A stretch of DNA of 11,945 nucleotides from a virus (Duplodnaviria > Heunggongvirae > Uroviricota > Caudoviricetes), in IMG/VR virus record IMGVR_UViG_2681813261_000018. One strand, given 5' to 3'. Positions 881-11,781 of this stretch are shown in pieces. Position numbers and translations under genes: made by a program. Every line of letters starts with the position of its first letter. The stretch's first letter is position 1. Under the pieces are notes generated by a model. It had not been told where the DNA came from and did not search any database. It saw only the letters and a program-made list of their open reading frames with translations.

Positions 881-917
881 TATAGACACAATCCCTTCTG
901 ATTTACACAGTACCTAA

Positions 918-937
918 AACAATTTGTTTTCTGCCTT
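918..937 (+). promoter_or_regulatory. conserved 20-mer AACAATTTGTTTTCTGCCTT with palindromic core AACAA-T-TTGTT (copy 1 of 2)
   Basis: Identical 20-mer recurs at 4995-5014; both copies lie between a terminator and the next plus-strand gene. Confidence 0.5.
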
Positions 938-946
938 TTGTTGATG

Positions 947-981
947 GAGATAATAAACCACATAAGAAAACAACTTGTTTT
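947..981 (+). promoter_or_regulatory. shared promoter/leader element: GATAAT (-10-like, 949-954) followed by AAGAAAACAACTTGTTTT palindrome
   Basis: Same architecture recurs upstream of the genes at 3629, 5776 and 6262, with partial versions at 2182-2209 and 4085-4100. Start codon follows 12 nt later, with GGAG at 982-985. Confidence 0.55.
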
Positions 982-993
982 GGAGTGGTTGAA

Positions 994-2119: not shown

Positions 2120-2209
2120 CGTTGATCGCCACTACTCCCCTTCCATACCCGCAATCACATCCTTAAATATCAATAAGTTATAGTTGTTTATACAATCAAG
2201 AAAACAACT

Positions 2210-2940
2210 GAATAACAGATCAACGAAACATCAACGCTTTCACCCGATTTGGTCTAAAAAATTGACGTTTTCACACATCACTGCTTATACCCGTAATTCT
2301 ACGCAGCAGACAGCGCCACAGCGTCCAATTTTCACCACAGACGACCCAACACACTACCAACAAAAACACACGCTCAAAATCGCTCCCGTTGCGTTACACA
2401 ACCATATAAACAACTTATTTTCAGGCATAACAAAACAACTAAATAACACACATGCCATTCCCCAAAACAACCAACCTCTTTATGTCAGGCTACCGAAAAG
2501 ACCCACCTCTTCTCCCCAGGCTACCGGACAACCAACCTAACTTTCACAGGCAATCCGAAAACATTCATACGCGCGATACCCACGACACGCCATTACCCAA
2601 ACAGCGAAGAAACATCAGAATCACTGAAACCCCAACGAAGCCTGTAACCGCAAGGTTTCTCTCAATCCCTAAAGACACGAAACATAACAATCACGGGAAA
2701 CGCCATTACCCAATACACGAATAACTACAAAAGCCTTTCACACACTCCAGACAAACAACTCAAACACAATAACGAAAGGAATCGCCCACCTGCCATTACT
2801 CCATACACGGAGAAGAACAATCACCAAAACGACGAGAACACCCCATAGAAGAACCACCGCAAAACTAACGAAACCACATACACCGACAGGGAAAACAACA
2901 CACCCAATTCACCAACAGAAATAGTCGCCGTATAGAGCGT
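2210..2940 (+). other. A+C-rich, G-poor non-coding tract of about 730 bp with degenerate internal repeats
   Basis: Counting by eye in 60-nt blocks gives about 5-18 percent G and about 75-80 percent A+C on the plus strand. GCCATTACCCAA-type motifs recur near 2454, 2590, 2702 and 2791. The track ORFs here are proline/threonine-rich and lack ribosome-binding sites. Confidence 0.5.
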
Positions 2941-3134
2941 TCTGGAAGGAGTGAGCATTAACGCCTATAGAGAGGTTGAGACAGATAAAACACGAAGAAA
3001 ACACAACATGTATAGCGAACAAGACAGGTATGTATAAGTGGGGAGGGAATGAGGGGTGTCGCCTCCTTTTTCGTATTTATTCAACTCCTGATTTTATCCC
3101 CCGTAACACCCCTACGGTCAGCCTTCGGTCCATA

Positions 3135-3265
3135 CAGGGAAAAGGTTGCATCCCGCTACAGAAACGGCTGGGTTGCCTTCGGGGAACGGCTGGGGATTTT
3201 CAGGGAAACGGTCGAGTTGCCTGTGTGGATTTCGGGAAAAGGCTCGATGCCGGTTCAGAAACGGC
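3135..3265. repeat. iteron-like direct repeat cluster 1 (core GGGAAACGGC / CAGAAACGGC; full unit about 22 bp)
   Basis: Core copies start near 3135, 3158, 3181, 3201, 3233 and 3256, spaced 20-32 bp. Extended units CTGGGGATTTTCAGGGAAACGG (3190-3211) and GTGTGGATTTCGGGAAAAGGC (3222-3243). Confidence 0.55.
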
Positions 3266-3584
3266 GGCGTACCGGTATAGCGAGAGGGAGAGTTGCGGCT
3301 GTCCACCTGTAATGTGCGGGAAGAAGAGAGGCGCTCACGTGCAGGCGAACTTACTTACCGCTGGATTCCCTCTGAATGCCCAGCTACAGCGTAATTGTGC
3401 CAGACAGTCAGCGGGTCACAATCGATTTCAGTAGGTTTTCGGGGAGAGGATTATTCTGCCCACCAGCCACCTTCGGCCACTAAATCAGAATAATGTAAAA
3501 AGTGTACTCGGTACTGAACCTGAAAACTCACTGCCAAAACCACATTCACCGGAATAAAATCCTTTTTCGCCTGTGCGTTATTGC

Positions 3585-3616
3585 GATAATAACACCATCA
3601 AGAAAACATGTTGTTT
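3585..3616 (+). promoter_or_regulatory. shared promoter/leader element (GATAAT + AACACCATCAAGAAAACATGTTGTTT)
   Basis: Matches the elements at 947-981, 5725-5757 and 6209-6240. The ATG at 3608 sits inside the conserved palindrome and is therefore not taken as the gene start. Confidence 0.55.
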
Positions 3617-3628
3617 AAGGATTGCTTT

Positions 3629-3986: not shown

Positions 3987-4084
3987 AACTTAATCTGTAG
4001 CCGCAGGGAAGAACCTGCATATCGCTCATGCACCTGATCAATATGCTTTGTAGCCGTTTTCTTACTGGTATTATTTACGCCATT

Positions 4085-4100
4085 GAGAAAACAAGTTGTT
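4085..4100 (+). promoter_or_regulatory. partial leader palindrome GAGAAAACAAGTTGTTT
   Basis: AACAA-G-TTGTT core upstream of the 4113 start; a TATTAT -10-like hexamer lies at 4069-4074. Confidence 0.4.
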
Positions 4101-4985: not shown

Positions 4986-4994
4986 AAGCCCGAT

Positions 4995-5014
4995 AACAAT
5001 TTGTTTTCTGCCTT
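4995..5014 (+). promoter_or_regulatory. conserved 20-mer AACAATTTGTTTTCTGCCTT (copy 2 of 2)
   Basis: Identical to 918-937; preceded by CGAT, which gives a GATAAC -10-like hexamer. Confidence 0.5.
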
Positions 5015-5065
5015 ATCTGATTTGTGAAAATGATTTCACTGAAGCAACTTAATAAGGAAACCATC

Positions 5066-5442: not shown

Positions 5443-5586
5443 ATGGGCGATTTCAAGAAACGCCTGAAGGAGAGAGCCGAGATGGTCAGAAAGCGAAACG
5501 CCTCTTCTGTCATCAGATACGCAAGGCAGTTTAGTCGCAACAACAAATCAGTTGAGGAAAAGATCCTTAGCGTAATCGGGCGATAA
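5443..5586 (+). CDS. possible small basic protein (47 aa), translationally coupled to the upstream gene
   Basis: ATG lies 2 nt after the upstream TAA, with GGTGG 5 nt upstream. Product MGDFKKRLKERAEMVRKRNASSVIRYARQFSRNNKSVEEKILSVIGR. Not in the ORF track (short), and rich in rare Arg codons. Confidence 0.35.
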   Translation: MGDFKKRLKERAEMVRKRNASSVIRYARQFSRNNKSVEEKILSVIGR

Positions 5587-5591
5587 TTATT

Positions 5592-5615
5592 AAGACCACC
5601 AGCATTGGTGGTCTT
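5592..5615 (+). terminator. perfect 10-bp-stem hairpin AAGACCACCA-GCAT-TGGTGGTCTT
   Basis: Immediately after the 5586 stop. Inverted-orientation relative of the hairpin at 6063-6086; followed by the shared flank AAATGAC. Confidence 0.5.
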
Positions 5616-5724
5616 AAATGACTTTTAATAACCGAAGGTTAGTTTGAAACCTGGCTATCAACCTCCAGAACCTTTCTTGTGTATTCAGCCTGTATTAACT
5701 TCTTTTATGCCTTATCTACACTGC

Positions 5725-5757
5725 GATAATTACACCAACAAGAAAACAACATGTTTA
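5725..5757 (+). promoter_or_regulatory. shared promoter/leader element (GATAAT + TACACCAACAAGAAAACAACATGTTT)
   Basis: GATAAT at 5725-5730. Near-identical to 3585-3616 and 6209-6240. Confidence 0.55.
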
Positions 5758-5775
5758 CGCAGTGAGGATATGCTC

Positions 5776-6057
5776 ATGACTGATTTCACCATTACCCCTA
5801 AAGCACAAAATGTATTTCTTGAATCATGGCTGGACTTGCCGGAAACAGAACAGCAAGAAATGGATCATGTGGATTATGACGAGCAGGTAAGCACGCGATT
5901 CTTCCACTTTGAGGGCTGCGTTTACGACATTGCCGACTTCATGCGAGATGACCGCTTCCCTGAATGGCACGCAAGCTATCCACTAAACGCCTTTGCCATG
6001 CTGATGATCCGTGTGGATGATTCAGGGGATACCATCGACATCGGTCTGCTCCACTAA
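5776..6057 (+). CDS. hypothetical small acidic protein (93 aa)
   Basis: ATG at 5776 with GAGGA 7 nt upstream; the track ORF starts at TTG 5644. About 20 acidic versus 5 basic residues. Confidence 0.6.
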   Translation: MTDFTITPKAQNVFLESWLDLPETEQQEMDHVDYDEQVSTRFFHFEGCVYDIADFMRDDRFPEWHASYPLNAFAMLMIRVDDSGDTIDIGLLH

Positions 6058-6062
6058 AGATT

Positions 6063-6086
6063 AAGGCCACCAATGCTGGTGGCCTT
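6063..6086 (+). terminator. perfect 10-bp-stem hairpin AAGGCCACCA-ATGC-TGGTGGCCTT
   Basis: 5 bp after the stop codon; followed by AAATGAC as at 5616. Confidence 0.5.
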
Positions 6087-6120
6087 AAATGACCATCCTG
6101 TTTCCCGCAGGCTAAAAACA

Positions 6121-6190
6121 CCAACCTCTTACCTCCAGGCAACCGATAAACCCACCTGTTCCCGTCCGGCTACCGCAACTTTCCACTTTG
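6121..6190 (+). repeat. about 70-bp intergenic repeat, copy B (copy A at about 2471-2547)
   Basis: Shares CCAACCTCTT, CAGGC-ACCGA-AA, CCCACCT and GGCTACCG blocks, in the same order, with 2471-2547. Confidence 0.45.
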
Positions 6191-6240
6191 ACGCCTTATT
6201 CGTACAACGATAATTAACACCAACAAGAAAACAATTTGTT
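6188..6240 (+). promoter_or_regulatory. promoter TTGACG (-35) - 15 bp - GATAAT (-10) followed by the shared leader ACACCAACAAGAAAACAATTTGTT
   Basis: -35 at 6188-6193, -10 at 6209-6214; leader palindrome AACAA-T-TTGTT. Confidence 0.55.
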
Positions 6241-6261: not shown

Positions 6262-6744
6262 ATGAATTTTATCGCTACTGTAAACGCACCCGCACATGGC
6301 AATATCGCTGTAACGTTCTCTGACATTGAAAAACGAGTACTTGGTGCATGGCGCGACAATGAGACGGTAGAACTGTCAGCACAAGAAAAATGCATTATTG
6401 CACGCGACATCATTGGCAATCGTCGTTACTCGCGGGTATTTGAGAAAGCGTATGTGGTAAATTCTGGATTCGGAACGTTCGTCTTTCCGGTGCGCTCCGG
6501 GCGATTCTGCCAGTCCAAGCTGATTGAGTTCGCTACGCAGATTTCTGTCTGGATTAAAACTCAATCGTCGTTCAAATTTTCCGACGATGAAGCAGTATCG
6601 CAGGGGATGCGGATCGCCAACAATGCGATTAAATGCAAAAACATTACGTATACCGCTGGCGTTGATACATGGAAACTGTTTTGCGCTAACTTTATGCTGA
6701 ATGTATACGCAAGCAACCGCATCCACATCCTTGATGGCGTGTAA
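6262..6744 (+). CDS. hypothetical protein (160 aa)
   Basis: ATG at 6262 with AAGGA 7 nt upstream. Product MNFIATVNAPAHGNIAVTFSDIEKRVLGAWRDNETVELS... Confidence 0.7.
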   Translation: MNFIATVNAPAHGNIAVTFSDIEKRVLGAWRDNETVELSAQEKCIIARDIIGNRRYSRVFEKAYVVNSGFGTFVFPVRSGRFCQSKLIEFATQISVWIKTQSSFKFSDDEAVSQGMRIANNAIKCKNITYTAGVDTWKLFCANFMLNVYASNRIHILDGV

Positions 6745-6776: not shown

Positions 6777-6793
6777 ATAGCCACCAGCTGCCG

Positions 6794-6870
6794 CAGGGAA
6801 ATTTTCAGAAACGGCAAGGAACGTATTCATGAGCCGACGGGAAACGGCCAGGATTTTTTCGGGAAACGGC
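6794..6870. repeat. iteron-like direct repeat cluster 2 (about 22-bp unit GGATTTTC-RGG-AAACGGC)
   Basis: CAGGGAAATTTTCAGAAACGGC (6794-6815) and CCAGGATTTTTTCGGGAAACGGC (6848-6870), plus ACGGGAAACGGCC (6837-6849); same unit as cluster 1. Confidence 0.55.
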
Positions 6871-6994
6871 TGCATTCGCCTTTATGTAGAAAAAACATCG
6901 GGAAGCTGGTGGAATCCAACCAGCGGTTGTCGGACAGGCGAGCGGGGAAAATTATGATGACTTTCGTCGCCTGAGACATCCAGATTTCTTTCGT

Positions 6995-7120: not shown

Positions 7121-7324
7121 AAGAATAAAAGCCAATGATTAACCATACACCATAGCGCAATATAACGCGTTTTAAGCGCGTTAATGTGTTGAGTAATGGG
7201 TATGTACTGGTAAGATATAAAAGCGCGTTTATGGCGTTATTTTGGCGCTTATTTTTCTGCTGTTGGCTTGAATCAAAGACAATAAAAAAGCGCCATCATT
7301 GGCGCGTTATGGTGGGAGTATTGG

Positions 7325-7354
7325 AAACGAAAAAAGCGCCCATAGTGGGCGCTA
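7325..7354 (-). terminator. rho-independent terminator of the 76-aa gene
   Basis: Read on the minus strand: AGCGCCCACTATGGGCGCT hairpin followed by six T, immediately after the stop codon. Confidence 0.8.
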
Positions 7355-7358
7355 GATT

Positions 7359-7589
7359 TTATTTGTGTAAACTAATTTTGAATCCCATTTCTACAAACGC
7401 TTTCAACATTAAAAATATATCAGCGTCATTCACGTCTGCTTTTTTTCGCTCCTGGTCGCTCAGTAAGTCAATTTTGCGCGTCGTTTCATCGATAAACTCG
7501 ACTGCGCGCCCAGCGTAACCAGCGATCCCAGCGATGCGATTAACAAAATATTCATTGCGCACGTTAACGCCAGCGATAAGAATAAACAT
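7359..7589 (-). CDS. hypothetical protein (76 aa)
   Basis: ATG at 7589 with AAGGAG 7 nt upstream. Product MFILIAGVNVRNEYFVNRIAGIAGYAGRAVEF... Confidence 0.6.
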   Translation of the reverse strand: MFILIAGVNVRNEYFVNRIAGIAGYAGRAVEFIDETTRKIDLLSDQERKKADVNDADIFLMLKAFVEMGFKISLHK

Positions 7590-7602
7590 GATTAAGCTCC
7601 TT

Positions 7603-7626
7603 AAAAGCGCCCATAGTGGGCGCCAG
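7603..7626 (-). terminator. intergenic hairpin (terminator or attenuator) between two co-directional genes
   Basis: Read on the minus strand: GGCGCCCACTATGGGCGC followed by TTTT and then directly the AAGGAG ribosome-binding site of the 76-aa gene; near-identical to the hairpin at 7336-7354. Confidence 0.55.
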
Positions 7627-7636
7627 ATTCCATTAA

Positions 7637-8002
7637 TTACGCTTTGAAAGCATCAGCCAGATAGTTATAGAAATCATTTTTAATAAAGCGATATTGCTGC
7701 GTACCAGCTTTTGCGCTTCCCATTCCTTTGACTTTCTCAACAAGTCCAAGACGTTCGCAAAGATTGATAAGCTGGTTGGCTTGAGTGTATCCTGCGTCTA
7801 ATTTTATTTCGTTGGCTTTTTTCGCTTCATTCATTAAATCGAAAACAGCGCCATTTGTGAACGTCTCGATCTCGTCGTTAATCATATCGATTAATGCGAA
7901 TACACGAGATCCGGACATATCAGCGACGGAATAAACACACTTTCCAGCTTTAATGGATTTAACCAGATAAACCAGTTTTTCCAGAGAATAACTATTAGTC
8001 AT
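7637..8002 (-). CDS. hypothetical protein (121 aa or more; N-terminus uncertain)
   Basis: Frame is open from ATG 8002 to TAA 7637, but also stays open upstream to the masked block at 8055, and the 8002 ATG has a poor ribosome-binding site. The true start may lie in masked sequence. Confidence 0.5.
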   Translation of the reverse strand: MTNSYSLEKLVYLVKSIKAGKCVYSVADMSGSRVFALIDMINDEIETFTNGAVFDLMNEAKKANEIKLDAGYTQANQLINLCERLGLVEKVKGMGSAKAGTQQYRFIKNDFYNYLADAFKA

Positions 8003-8054
8003 TGCATCACGGAAAAATACTTCTGGCGCTTGTTTGCTTGCTTTGATCGCATAG

Positions 8055-8199
8055 NNNNNNNNNNNNNNNNNNNNNNNNNNNNNNNNNNNNNNNNNNNNNN
8101 NNNNNNNNNNNNNNNNNNNNNNNNNNNNNNNNNNNNNNNNNNNNNNNNNNNNNNNNNNNNNNNNNNNNNNNNNNNNNNNNNNNNNNNNNNNNNNNNNNN
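8055..8199. other. masked / undetermined sequence (145 N)
   Basis: Run of N; content cannot be assessed. Confidence 1.
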
Positions 8200-8231: not shown

Positions 8232-8575
8232 NNNNNNNNNNNNNNNNNNNNNNNNNNNNNNNNNNNNNNNNNNNNNNNNNNNNNNNNNNNNNNNNNNNNN
8301 NNNNNNNNNNNNNNNNNNNNNNNNNNNNNNNNNNNNNNNNNNNNNNNNNNNNNNNNNNNNNNNNNNNNNNNNNNNNNNNNNNNNNNNNNNNNNNNNNNNN
8401 NNNNNNNNNNNNNNNNNNNNNNNNNNNNNNNNNNNNNNNNNNNNNNNNNNNNNNNNNNNNNNNNNNNNNNNNNNNNNNNNNNNNNNNNNNNNNNNNNNNN
8501 NNNNNNNNNNNNNNNNNNNNNNNNNNNNNNNNNNNNNNNNNNNNNNNNNNNNNNNNNNNNNNNNNNNNNNNNNNN
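8232..8575. other. masked / undetermined sequence (344 N)
   Basis: Run of N; content cannot be assessed. Confidence 1.
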
Positions 8576-8645: not shown

Positions 8646-9170
8646 TTAAAATGGAAGGATTCGTTCAACCCAATCGAAGAAAACAAGTATTTTTCTGCCG
8701 TCTTCTAACTTAAGAGTGACCTGGCAAGCATCAACGCCTCTTGACACCCCTTCTATTTCACGACCGTCTGTCATGTAGACCCTTATAGATTGGTCGTTTT
8801 GATAAGCCTTGCGACATATCGCAAAAAAGTCACGGCGTGATGGCTGATTGTCAACATAGTCTGGATGTATTGTTAGCCTACCTTTGAACTCGCGAGCAAT
8901 GCCATCGATTACACCTGATTCAATTGTGCTAATGCGCTCAAGTGGGAGTCTTATACGATTTTCTTTATCATATGGAATCGGGCATAAATCTAGCTTATTG
9001 CGTGAAGGCATTGTCCCCTGAACGTACATGCAAAACACCTGACCGTCTTCAAGCGTGACTCTTACAGGAATGTTGTTCTTCCGCCAGAACATAAGTATGT
9101 TCTCAGCATGTTCGTAGTCTCGCGGCCAGACTTCAGCCGGTATGCCGTAGGTGATGTCCAATGTTTTCAT
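8646..9170 (-). CDS. hypothetical protein (174 aa) with an internally repeated [VL]-x-[LM]-x-DG-[QR] motif
   Basis: ATG at 9170 overlaps the upstream stop codon (ATGA). Motifs VTLEDGQVF, VYMTDGREI and LKLEDGRKILVF suggest a repeated small beta-rich fold. Confidence 0.65.
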   Translation of the reverse strand: MKTLDITYGIPAEVWPRDYEHAENILMFWRKNNIPVRVTLEDGQVFCMYVQGTMPSRNKLDLCPIPYDKENRIRLPLERISTIESGVIDGIAREFKGRLTIHPDYVDNQPSRRDFFAICRKAYQNDQSIRVYMTDGREIEGVSRGVDACQVTLKLEDGRKILVFFDWVERILPF

Positions 9171-10221: not shown

Positions 10222-11781
10222 CTAATCTCGTTTCAGAACTCCAAAATCGAATGCTCCATCAATAGGCAATACACCTTCTGCAAAGCCAGGTGTGGTGTCG
10301 ATGATGTGTTTTCGCTCATAAGAGTGAGACAACAGGTATTTGTTGCTAATGTCAATGAAATCAGTGATAAAACACACGTTTGCCTGATTTTTTTTGGCTC
10401 GTAAGCCACGACCGACACGCTGCCTCATTTCAACTTCTGCTTTCCCACCACCAGCAAGAATGACCGCACCAACGCTTGGCACATCAACACCGACATCCAG
10501 AATAGTCGAGCCTATTAAAACATCTATTTCTCCAGACGCTAAACTGTTCAGCTTTGCTTGCCTTGTCGCCTGGTTAGATTCCCCATAGATGAAATCAACT
10601 CTAAGACCTGACTCCTTCATCATCTCCATCAGGATTTGCCCGTGGCGTTTAAGACGAACCAGAGTCATGCAGTTGAGTGAATGTTGCTTATAAAGCAATG
10701 CCTCGCGCACTATGGCCTCGTTACGTCCCAAATTATACACGATCCCCAACTGATAAGCCTTTTGGTAGGCGGTGCTCATACCAACTCTAAAATTGAGGTG
10801 TTTGTTGGCAAGTTCGGCCTTGATTCTGGCCTCGTCTGGCTTGTAGGCAACTTTATGATAAAGGAAGTACGGCTTTGCCAGAATGCCTCGATCAATCAGG
10901 TACTTTTCTGTGACTTTAATTTCAATTCGCCCGGCCACCGCCATCAGGCGCATGTTGGCTTCCGTCGAATCCTTCATGAACGGCGTGGCTGTAAGCGCCA
11001 GACGATAGTCTGCGTTCACACATAATCTGGCGATGTCATAGAAATTTGAGCCTGAAGACTCATGCGCCTCTTCCAGAATAAGAAGAGAGACACTTGAAAG
11101 GAAGCGTTTCACCAACTCCCGACGTTTGAGGTGGTAGCTTTTCTTATCTGGTGTTGCATCGCGTGGTGGTTCTTCGAGGAAACTTGCAAGAGTTTGAACT
11201 GTAGCGACGTTGATATGTCGTGATACCTGGAACTCACCCGAGCCAATGACTCCAACCTTTTGGTCTTTTAACCACGGTTCGCCATTTTCGGCGCGGTAGT
11301 CGATGGATCTCTGGAAGTTTTCGGCCATTTGAAACATCAGAACAGAGCGGGTTGTTAAAAATAATGTCATTCGACCGATACGTGCAGCTGCTTTGCAGGC
11401 AACGTTAGATTTCCCGCCACCAGTAGCGATCTGCGCAATCATCATTCCCTCTCGAACCAGTGTTTCCACAGTCTGATCCTGATACGCATAATCAGGATTG
11501 TATGGGAATGGGTTAACCGCAGGATTTGGTTTACCAAGCGCCGGGGCTTTGTCTTTGCGGATATGAACACATTTGATGCCCGCCTTGTTCAATTTCGCCG
11601 CTACAGGCTTGGCAAAGCCTGCAGGGAACGAGTTTTTACTCCAGTTGAACATTGTGCTTGTGCCCTTCCAGTCGCCAGTCTCGACTTCGTAGCTCAACAT
11701 CTGTTGCACCAGTTGCTTTACCTTGTCATCTGCGCCAGAAATAAGCGCATTAACTGCGTTAGATACAATCCGAACAGTCAT
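10222..11781 (-). CDS. superfamily-2 helicase (DEAD/DEAH / ResIII-like), 519 aa, with an N-terminal extension of about 100 aa of unknown function
   Basis: Ordered helicase motifs: Walker A QIATGGGKSNV; motif II LILEEAHES (DEAH variant); motif III LTATPF; motif VI QRVGRGLRA. ATG at 11781 with AGGAAAGAGG just upstream. Longest ORF in the window. Confidence 0.85.
   Translation of the reverse strand: MTVRIVSNAVNALISGADDKVKQLVQQMLSYEVETGDWKGTSTMFNWSKNSFPAGFAKPVAAKLNKAGIKCVHIRKDKAPALGKPNPAVNPFPYNPDYAYQDQTVETLVREGMMIAQIATGGGKSNVACKAAARIGRMTLFLTTRSVLMFQMAENFQRSIDYRAENGEPWLKDQKVGVIGSGEFQVSRHINVATVQTLASFLEEPPRDATPDKKSYHLKRRELVKRFLSSVSLLILEEAHESSGSNFYDIARLCVNADYRLALTATPFMKDSTEANMRLMAVAGRIEIKVTEKYLIDRGILAKPYFLYHKVAYKPDEARIKAELANKHLNFRVGMSTAYQKAYQLGIVYNLGRNEAIVREALLYKQHSLNCMTLVRLKRHGQILMEMMKESGLRVDFIYGESNQATRQAKLNSLASGEIDVLIGSTILDVGVDVPSVGAVILAGGGKAEVEMRQRVGRGLRAKKNQANVCFITDFIDISNKYLLSHSYERKHIIDTTPGFAEGVLPIDGAFDFGVLKRD

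Follow-up and report, generated by a model that had tools for sequence, protein, structure and literature searches.

The 11,945-nt stretch of tailed-phage DNA considered here (hereafter the window; IMG/VR record IMGVR_UViG_2681813261_000018, Caudoviricetes) carries on its minus strand a gene for a 76-aa protein that lies between two copies of a single hairpin, directly downstream of a conserved gene for a 216-aa protein (U216). Comparison with related loci indicates that the hairpin duplication marks the borders of a swappable gene cassette, with empty, single and double states of the slot all represented in nature. The model that we consider probable is that the terminator stem of an operon was duplicated around swappable, promoter-less cassettes, the upstream copy being leaky and read through. 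The feature is mechanistically ordinary, a duplicated terminator stem, and evolutionarily informative as the border of a cassette slot. If this is correct, tiny accessory genes can be acquired, shed and stacked by a family of phage-plasmids that needs neither transposase nor integrase for the purpose, the terminator stem being simply reused as a recombination joint. Elements of the SSU5, pHCM2, pMT1 and pLF82 type are widespread in clinical Enterobacteriaceae. Their identical stems with graded U-tracts form a natural series that could serve as a test bed for the effect of the tail on terminator leakiness. The case nevertheless represents a modest and mechanistically unsurprising extension of the modular shuffling of T4-like and lambdoid phages, and touches no major open question.

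The hairpin pair and the states of the slot

The anatomy of the pair, its conservation, the set of slot states and a systematic difference between the hairpin tails can be read directly from the sequences. On the minus strand, the stop codon TAA of the upstream gene (7639-7637) is followed by 13 nt (TTAATGGAATCTG) and then by GCGCCCACTATGGGCGC (7623-7607), TTTT (7606-7603), AAGGAG (7602-7597), the spacer CTTAATC and the ATG (7589-7587) of the 76-aa open reading frame (ORF). Downstream of the stop of this ORF come AATCTA, the 17-mer GCGCCCACTATGGGCGC again (7352-7336) and TTTTTT (7335-7330). The features of the slot are:

7637-8054, minus strand: 3' part of U216, a 216-aa conserved gene (phrog_1513, likewise with no function assigned by PHROGs); tblastn gives 100% identity to the protein of the relative L001 over window positions 8053-7640
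7607-7623, minus strand: proximal hairpin GCGCCCA-CTA-TGGGCGC, with 7 G/C-rich pairs and an extra G.U closing pair if extended to 7606-7624
7597-7606, minus strand: TTTT plus AAGGAG, a shortened U-tract joined to the Shine-Dalgarno sequence of the 76-aa gene; also the left cassette junction
7359-7589, minus strand: 76-aa gene, cassette family A (phrog_1585), function not assigned by PHROGs
7336-7352, minus strand: distal hairpin with the same stem; with its tail, a canonical intrinsic terminator
7325-7335, minus strand: tail of the distal hairpin, TTTTTTCGTTT, part of the backbone and also present after the single hairpin of empty-slot relatives
7284-7305, minus strand: back-up terminator, a different hairpin (GCGCCAATGATGGCGC, 7305-7290) followed by T6, 30 nt past the distal copy

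A first-pass annotation, made from the sequence of the window alone, had described near-identical hairpins on both sides of the 76-aa gene, the upstream one running through TTTT and AAGGAG into its ATG; the order of elements is confirmed and the two 17-mers are identical. The 17-mer occurs exactly twice in the window, both times on the minus strand, against a chance expectation of 0.01; none of 200 shuffles reached this count, and a chance origin was rejected. The direct repeat is longer than the 17-mer, comprising 32 nt at 91% identity (AATCT[G/A]GCGCCCACTATGGGCGCTTTT on the sense strand), with the copies 271 nt apart. Both hairpins (-13.6 kcal/mol) are present in the minimum-free-energy and centroid structures, with a pair probability of ~1 in every context folded. 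Because the exact count exceeds chance and both stems fold, the paired hairpins are a real and non-random feature.

The upstream gene, which had been taken for a 121-aa gene at 7637-8002, proved to be only the 3' part of U216. Masking by N at 8055-8199 and 8232-8575 covers its first ~95 codons and its promoter, which is why the ORF list under-calls it as 121 aa. In unmasked relatives U216 measures 651 bp (216 aa), and L001 shows the masked features (U216 5' part, promoter-like site and the upstream gene's terminator) at 7139-7420. The window is part of an SSU5-like phage-plasmid, since the region shares 98% identity with Escherichia phage Cyrano (pLF82), 96-98% with E. coli plasmids of ~110 kb and 81-86% with Klebsiella phage-plasmids and Salmonella phage SSU5, and since 242 of 242 E. 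coli matches are located on plasmids.

In a first comparison of seven annotated relatives, the stretch 3' of U216 was already variable. The window, Cyrano and L001 share the arrangement hairpin-A (76 aa)-hairpin; E. coli p1042d has three hairpins (hairpin-A'-hairpin-A-hairpin), A' being a 75-aa paralogue that is 47% identical to A; PhiR41_1 shows hairpin-B-T8-A-hairpin, where B (67 aa) is unrelated to A; SSU5 and one Klebsiella phage show hairpin-B-hairpin. A larger sample was gathered by the U216 protein alone, which avoids the ascertainment bias of a 17-mer scan, and contains 83 loci with complete downstream sequence and 161 hairpin copies, with U216 at 62-100% amino-acid identity. Its slot states, with the spacing of the hairpins, are:

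Empty slot (U216, one hairpin, T6), no spacing: 11 of 83 loci
Hairpin-B-hairpin, 246-250 nt: 27 loci, plus 4 with an extra tandem terminal hairpin
Hairpin-A-type-hairpin, 262-274 nt: 15 loci
Hairpin-C-hairpin (C has 75 aa and occurs in a plasmid contig of Yersinia pestis, probably pMT1), 307 nt: 5 loci
Double cassette without a middle hairpin, 493-499 nt: 19 loci
Double cassette with three hairpins (hairpin-A'-hairpin-A-hairpin), 270 + 271 nt: 2 loci

Single cassettes of families A, B and C account for 51 of the 83 loci and double cassettes for 21; in the 19 without a middle hairpin, the A-family gene stands behind cassette B after a plain T7-8 run. Searches of Pfam, PADLOC and PDB sequences returned no match for the 76-aa protein or for U216, and PADLOC, the sole search made for cassette B, returned none for that protein. 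Cassette B corresponds to phrog_6145, the third PHROGs family named besides 1585 and 1513; its label 'MIT/CorA transporter' was rejected as implausible for a soluble-looking protein of 67 aa. Family A was not found outside this slot, all 42 of its IMG/VR relatives lying in the same slot of SSU5-like contigs.

The 14-nt stem is perfect in 159 of the 161 copies. The other 2, both in the locus L155, carry a single, non-compensatory mismatch, and a covariation test is uninformative with a stem that is essentially invariant. The position of the proximal hairpin is fixed in nearly all relatives (46 nt into segments that begin with the last 30 nt of the U216 coding match). The exact 17-mer was found at 104 IMG/VR loci, ~90 of which represent this slot beside a U216 homologue and ~9 of which are unrelated (mostly high-GC, chance or convergent). 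It is restricted to a single slot per ~100-kb contig, and a dispersed, genome-wide repeat of the repetitive extragenic palindrome (REP) kind was rejected, given that ~90 of the 104 loci are one slot. A U216 search of genome contigs added 5 loci of identical design (Yersinia pestis, two Kluyvera, Buttiauxella and one metagenome-assembled genome). Exact 17-mers also lie beside U216 homologues of 48-53% identity, at loci picked by the 17-mer itself, and L064 and L030 (U216 ~49% identical) carry tandem arrays of 2-3 hairpin-plus-T6 units with a 44-nt period, gene-free and right after U216.

A similar fusion, apparently of independent origin, occurs in a different phage: in two IMG/VR loci unrelated to SSU5 (L014 and L090), a stem of similar kind, CTGCCCATAGTGGGCAG, stands before the inverted 17-mer, GCGCCCATAGTGGGCGC, which is itself followed by ATTTTAGGAG and an ATG. 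Here, too, a hairpin appears to run into a ribosome-binding site.

Transcription and recombination at the slot

The hairpin copies differ according to what follows them. All 74 copies that precede a cassette have a short or interrupted T-run with a Shine-Dalgarno sequence within a few to ~50 nt, and in most lineages the T-run leads straight into AAGGA(G). All 87 terminal copies have T5-7 followed by (C)GTTTC or a close variant, and TTTTTTCGTTTC is the tail of 53 of these 87 slot-ending copies. The tails of the 74 cassette-preceding copies include:

TTTAAAGGAG: 22 copies
TAGTTTTAAGGA: 21 copies
TTTTAAGGAG: 7 copies
TATTTTTAAGGA, TTATTCAAAAGA and TTTTAAATGGAC: 5 copies each
TAGTTTAAGGAT, TGGTTTTAAGGA and TATAAAGGAG: 3 copies each

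The U-tract typical of an intrinsic terminator (~5 or more of 8 nt) is present behind the distal copy (T6 then CGTTT) and missing behind the proximal one. A rough terminator score of the type of d'Aubenton-Carafa et al. (1990), using modern energy parameters, gave d = -2.7 for the proximal and +28.9 for the distal copy of the window, -7 to -38 for proximal copies in other lineages and ~+29 for terminal and empty-slot copies. A terminator scan based on an independent consensus called the distal copy and the back-up only. Copies in front of a cassette are accordingly predicted to be weak or inactive terminators, and terminal copies strong ones. The distal copy had been described as a canonical terminator with six T, a description with which both the call and the score agree. 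In empty-slot relatives the hairpin is predicted to be the terminator stem of U216 itself, and related stems nearby (GCGCCA...TGGCGC) act as ordinary terminators.

No promoter-like site was found on the minus strand from the U216 start to the ATG of the 76-aa gene, in the window or in the unmasked L001. A candidate promoter (TTGCAA-16-GATAAT) lies ~75 nt upstream of the U216 ATG in L001. Given a gap of just 4 nt between stem and Shine-Dalgarno sequence, the lack of a promoter-like site ahead of the gene and the truncated U-tract, we infer that the 76-aa gene must be expressed by read-through of the upstream hairpin, by some presumed fraction of the polymerases.

Expression of the two genes in LF82 was compared in a re-analysis of published RNA-seq data (PMC9928086, S1 Table), whose log2(FPKM+5) values (FPKM, fragments per kilobase per million) were here converted to FPKM:

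LB medium: CYRAN_113 (U216) ~0-2 FPKM; CYRAN_112 (76 aa) 0 FPKM
Macrophages, 1 h: CYRAN_113 5.6 / 9.9 FPKM; CYRAN_112 16 / 15 FPKM
Macrophages, 6 h: CYRAN_113 46 / 40 FPKM; CYRAN_112 24 / 15 FPKM

Both genes of LF82/Cyrano rise together in macrophages, with a downstream/upstream ratio of ~0.4-2.9. These values agree with co-transcription of the two genes and with termination that is no more than partial, although the low counts and the coarseness of the table do not allow a measure of read-through.

In the favoured model, a short operon would consist of a promoter, U216, optional small gene(s) and a terminator, the hairpin being its intrinsic-terminator stem. The slot 3' of U216 would hold, between two stems, promoter-less small genes with their own ribosome-binding site (A, A'/C, B). 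Where a cassette follows the hairpin, the U-tract of the backbone would be replaced by T3-4 or an interrupted T-run leading into AAGGA(G), turning this copy into a weak or non-functional terminator. With the upstream terminator so weakened, polymerase from the U216 promoter would enter the cassette and halt at the distal copy (T6), with the second terminator as a back-up. The upstream copy is thus probably not a regulatory switch but a stop that leaks, and it may passively stabilise the RNA end.

The same model would make the duplication both product and substrate of homologous (unequal) recombination between hairpin copies, by which cassettes may be inserted, deleted, swapped and stacked. The B-occupied locus L113 and the empty locus L156 (U216 96.6% identical) differ by a precise 247-bp indel that corresponds to cassette B plus one hairpin, and are collinear on both sides of it. 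Unequal crossing-over between a distal and a proximal hairpin predicts a three-hairpin double cassette and an empty slot, and both were found. Mosaicism is also apparent between L118 and L115, with identities of 82.6% in U216, 92.8% in cassette A and 94.8% in the next 250 nt. The T-run between the stem and the Shine-Dalgarno sequence tracks the backbone clade and not the cassette: the tail before family A is TAGTTTTAAGGA-GCTTAATCATG in backbones of the SSU5 type, against TTTTAAGGAGCTTAATCATG in those of the E. coli type. The left joint is thereby placed in a patch of ~28 nt formed by the stem, the T-run and the Shine-Dalgarno sequence. The loop of the main hairpin is CTA or TAG in 146 copies, with ATA, TTA, CAA, TTG, GCAA and others in the rest. 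TAG takes the place of CTA in 18 of the 161 copies, and the exchange is seen even where two loci have just 3 differences in ~890 other positions (99.7% identical); the back-up terminator GCGCCA-NNNN-TGGCGC likewise carries its loop in both orientations (ATGA/TCAT, TTGT/ACAA; relatives L004, L006, L022 and L113). Such frequent flips indicate that the palindromes are active in template switching or recombination at the DNA level. From these patterns we infer recombination to be the mechanism of slot variation.

Alternative explanations and comparable systems

The first-pass annotation had proposed that the upstream hairpin controls read-through as an attenuator or RNase processing site, that is, a conditional stop or cleavage that tunes the 76-aa protein relative to U216. 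Such regulation is unlikely. It would fit a stable stem 4 nt before the Shine-Dalgarno sequence with a shortened U-tract, a stem kept in 74 of 74 cassette-preceding copies though termination there would be counter-productive, and an RNA-seq ratio that shifts by condition from ~0.4 to 2.9; these expression values, however, are close to the detection floor. No competing antiterminator fold was found with 60-350 nt of upstream RNA, in which the hairpin keeps a probability of 0.97-1.0. There is no leader ORF, the U216 stop lying 13 nt before the stem, and no Rfam family scored above threshold (best E = 0.09-0.7, far under the gathering scores). The tails (TTTT, TTTAAA, TAGTTTT, TATAAA, TTATTC) vary so widely between lineages that no common attenuation signal is conserved, and in the 19 of 83 loci where an A-family gene directly follows B with its T7-8 run, the hairpin appears to be dispensable. 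What stands of the proposal is that expression of the 76-aa gene would depend on passage through the hairpin, while a regulated attenuator or processing site finds no support. It is very improbable, on the other hand, that the pair represents a plain duplication of a full terminator, in which U216 transcription ends at the first hairpin and the 76-aa gene has its own promoter. The strong stem (-13.6 kcal/mol) with its four U's and the borderline score of the proximal copy in the window (d = -2.7) speak for it. An independent promoter for the 76-aa gene, which the first-pass annotation had named as the sign of such a duplication, was looked for: no minus-strand promoter-like site is present in the U216 3' part of the window or of the unmasked L001, the 4 nt between stem and Shine-Dalgarno sequence leave no space for one, and a promoter within U216 would still transcribe through the hairpin. 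Moreover, relatives with still poorer tails (TATAAAGGAG, TAGTTTT) retain an intact gene, and both genes rise together in the RNA-seq data.

It also seems improbable that the 7+3+7 palindrome is a sequence-specific site at which a protein encoded by the phage-plasmid or the host (a recombinase, hairpin nuclease or RNA-binding protein) binds or cuts; a special machinery, in place of general homologous recombination, would then move the cassettes. The stem is perfect in 159 of 161 copies despite U216 identities down to 62%, exact 17-mers accompany U216 homologues of 48-53% identity (at loci selected by the 17-mer), compensatory stem variants were not seen, the 17-mer is limited to one slot per genome, and some lineages have tandem arrays with the 44-nt period, all of which would fit a recognised site. 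Against this, the loop varies and inverts freely, as expected of a simple stem and less of a specific site; the left junction falls in the T-run and Shine-Dalgarno sequence, at no fixed position of the stem, with tails that track the backbone clade; no recombinase is adjacent to the slot in the window; and the related stems GCGCCA...TGGCGC nearby are ordinary terminators.

Several points weigh against the favoured model of a leaky, duplicated terminator stem. The zero point of the d-score is approximate, given the use of modern energies. Termination at TTTT-AAGGAG is a prediction, and four U's after a stem of -13.6 kcal/mol could still stop a considerable share of the transcripts. The expression values from RNA-seq are very low (near the detection floor), resolved by gene and possibly not strand-specific. 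Cassettes could be swapped between genomes through the long homologous flanks, without involving the hairpin, so that the hairpin repeats are specifically implicated by the empty, stacked and tandem states alone. Finally, a near-perfect stem with no compensatory variants in 161 copies exceeds the need of a generic terminator, and the model explains it incompletely. Homogenisation by frequent recombination (between copies or co-resident elements), selection for exchange and recognition by a protein are candidate causes. A more speculative reading, to which we give only a small chance, is that the conserved 17-nt palindrome acts as a docking site for promoter-less cassettes, exchange between hairpins excising circles of a cassette plus one hairpin that re-enter empty slots. 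If so, SSU5-like elements would possess an integrase-free, integron- or PeSL-like (see below) slot for trying small genes, and the perfect stem would be kept by selection for exchange or by a recognising protein, not for termination.

The closest described system is the promoter-early stem-loop (PeSL) of T4-type phages, conserved units of a sigma-70 early promoter and a stem-loop that end in the Shine-Dalgarno sequence of the next gene (Arbiol et al. 2010, PMC2839356). PeSLs flank ORFans, and recombination between copies has been proposed to delete or insert the ORFan (PMC2839356; Comeau et al. 2014, PMC4122927). Excised mini-circles with a single chimeric motif are a further mark of the T4 system. 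Here as in T4, conserved intergenic motifs with a terminator stem-loop lie on either side of small ORFans in a variable region, one copy corresponds to the empty and two to the occupied state among related genomes, and the motif runs into the Shine-Dalgarno sequence and start codon of the gene that follows. Unlike in PeSLs, a promoter is absent from the motif, which would leave the cassettes promoter-less and dependent on read-through; the stem lies 3-7 nt from the Shine-Dalgarno sequence (~50 nt in family C); the homology extends over ~27-32 nt instead of ~100 nt; the 17-mer occupies a single slot per genome in contrast to ~50 dispersed PeSL copies, which gather in hyperplastic regions; and the host element is a siphovirus-type phage-plasmid rather than a T4-like myovirus. 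Because the promoter, the defining feature of PeSLs, is absent, the homology short and the slot single, the hairpin is better viewed as a PeSL-like variant than as a member of the PeSLs.

As a terminator, the hairpin resembles ordinary intrinsic terminators in its G/C-rich stem of 7-8 bp and its 3-nt loop, and the distal copy adds T6 and a back-up terminator. The proximal copy is also comparable to leaky intra-operon terminators, since it stands between two cistrons of one transcription unit. Known partial terminators set expression ratios within transcription units. In contrast to these, the proximal copy lacks a full U-tract in every lineage. Since lineages vary so much in the tail, the copy seems to have been kept more as a legacy of its role at a module border than through selection for a particular termination efficiency.

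Juhala et al. in 2000 and Clark et al. in 2001 reportedly described morons and 'boundary/linker sequences' in the mosaicism of lambdoid phages. Like these, the slot has small accessory genes between conserved genes, delimited by transcription signals, and short conserved gene-boundary sequences that would serve as recombination joints. A classical moron has its own promoter and terminator, whereas the cassettes have a terminator and a ribosome-binding site only. The LF82 RNA-seq study left CYRAN_112, with 0 FPKM in LB, outside the moron class (PMC9928086).

The loops of both terminator hairpins occur in either orientation (CTA/TAG, ATGA/TCAT, TTGT/ACAA). Hairpin-loop 'flip-flop' inversions in perfect palindromes are best known from chloroplast non-coding DNA. 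In the present case the palindromes are terminators of a phage-plasmid, and the likeness does not explain the duplication. The attC sites of integrons are imperfect hairpins of 57-141 bp with extrahelical bases, used by the integrase IntI; the present element, a perfect 17-nt palindrome, is of another kind. A Pfam search of seven window ORFs (6262-6744 and 9 kb on the minus strand) found no integrase; the remainder of the phage-plasmid lay outside this search.

Other features of the window

The genes near the slot include a helicase and an FljA-like regulator, with ParB in addition in relatives. The minus-strand ORF at 10222-11781 encodes a DEAD/ResIII-type helicase, and that at 8646-9170 a homologue of the FljA-like 'repressor of phase-1 flagellin' (Pfam PF03614, E = 9e-81); a flagellin-repressor homologue on a phage-plasmid could alter host motility. 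Positions 1-832 on the plus strand contain the 3' end of metG (methionine-tRNA ligase), ~92% identical to chromosomal E. coli metG. A chimeric assembly or chromosomal junction at this point was considered and rejected: phage-plasmids carry their own metG copy, and the full junction from metG to the next gene is present in ~198 E. coli plasmids.

Two clusters of short repeats occupy long non-coding stretches, one at 3120-3290 and 6790-6880 and the other at 2464-2560 and 6114-6179. The units of one cluster are GGGAAA(A/C)GGC / CAGAAACGGC with a period of ~97 nt; those of the other are 30 nt long (ACC(A/C)ACCT...GGCTACCG). Both clusters resemble iterons and may be replication or partition sites.

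The plus strand carries a further repeated arrangement, a conserved module of ~40-76 nt upstream of almost every small plus-strand gene, together with a second pair of terminator hairpins:

913-988, plus strand: module copy
2188-2213, plus strand: module copy
3549-3624, plus strand: module copy
4075-4100, plus strand: module copy
4990-5031, plus strand: module copy
5689-5764, plus strand: module copy
6215-6240, plus strand: module copy
5584-5622 and 6055-6093, plus strand: second near-identical terminator hairpin pair, TTAAG[A/G]CCACCA-loop-TGGTGG[T/C]CTTAA

The modules contain GATAAT-like -10 hexamers and the palindrome AAAACAAnnTGTTT, with 14 matches on both strands against 0.28 expected, and look like a shared promoter/operator; a single repressor would then co-regulate the array in PeSL fashion. 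The second hairpin pair brackets the gene at 5644-6057 (plus strand), and its loop is inverted between the copies (GCAT vs ATGC). With its promoter/operator motif and hairpins, the plus-strand array is nearer to a true PeSL architecture than the minus-strand slot, which suggests that the entire accessory region of these phage-plasmids is assembled from such modules.

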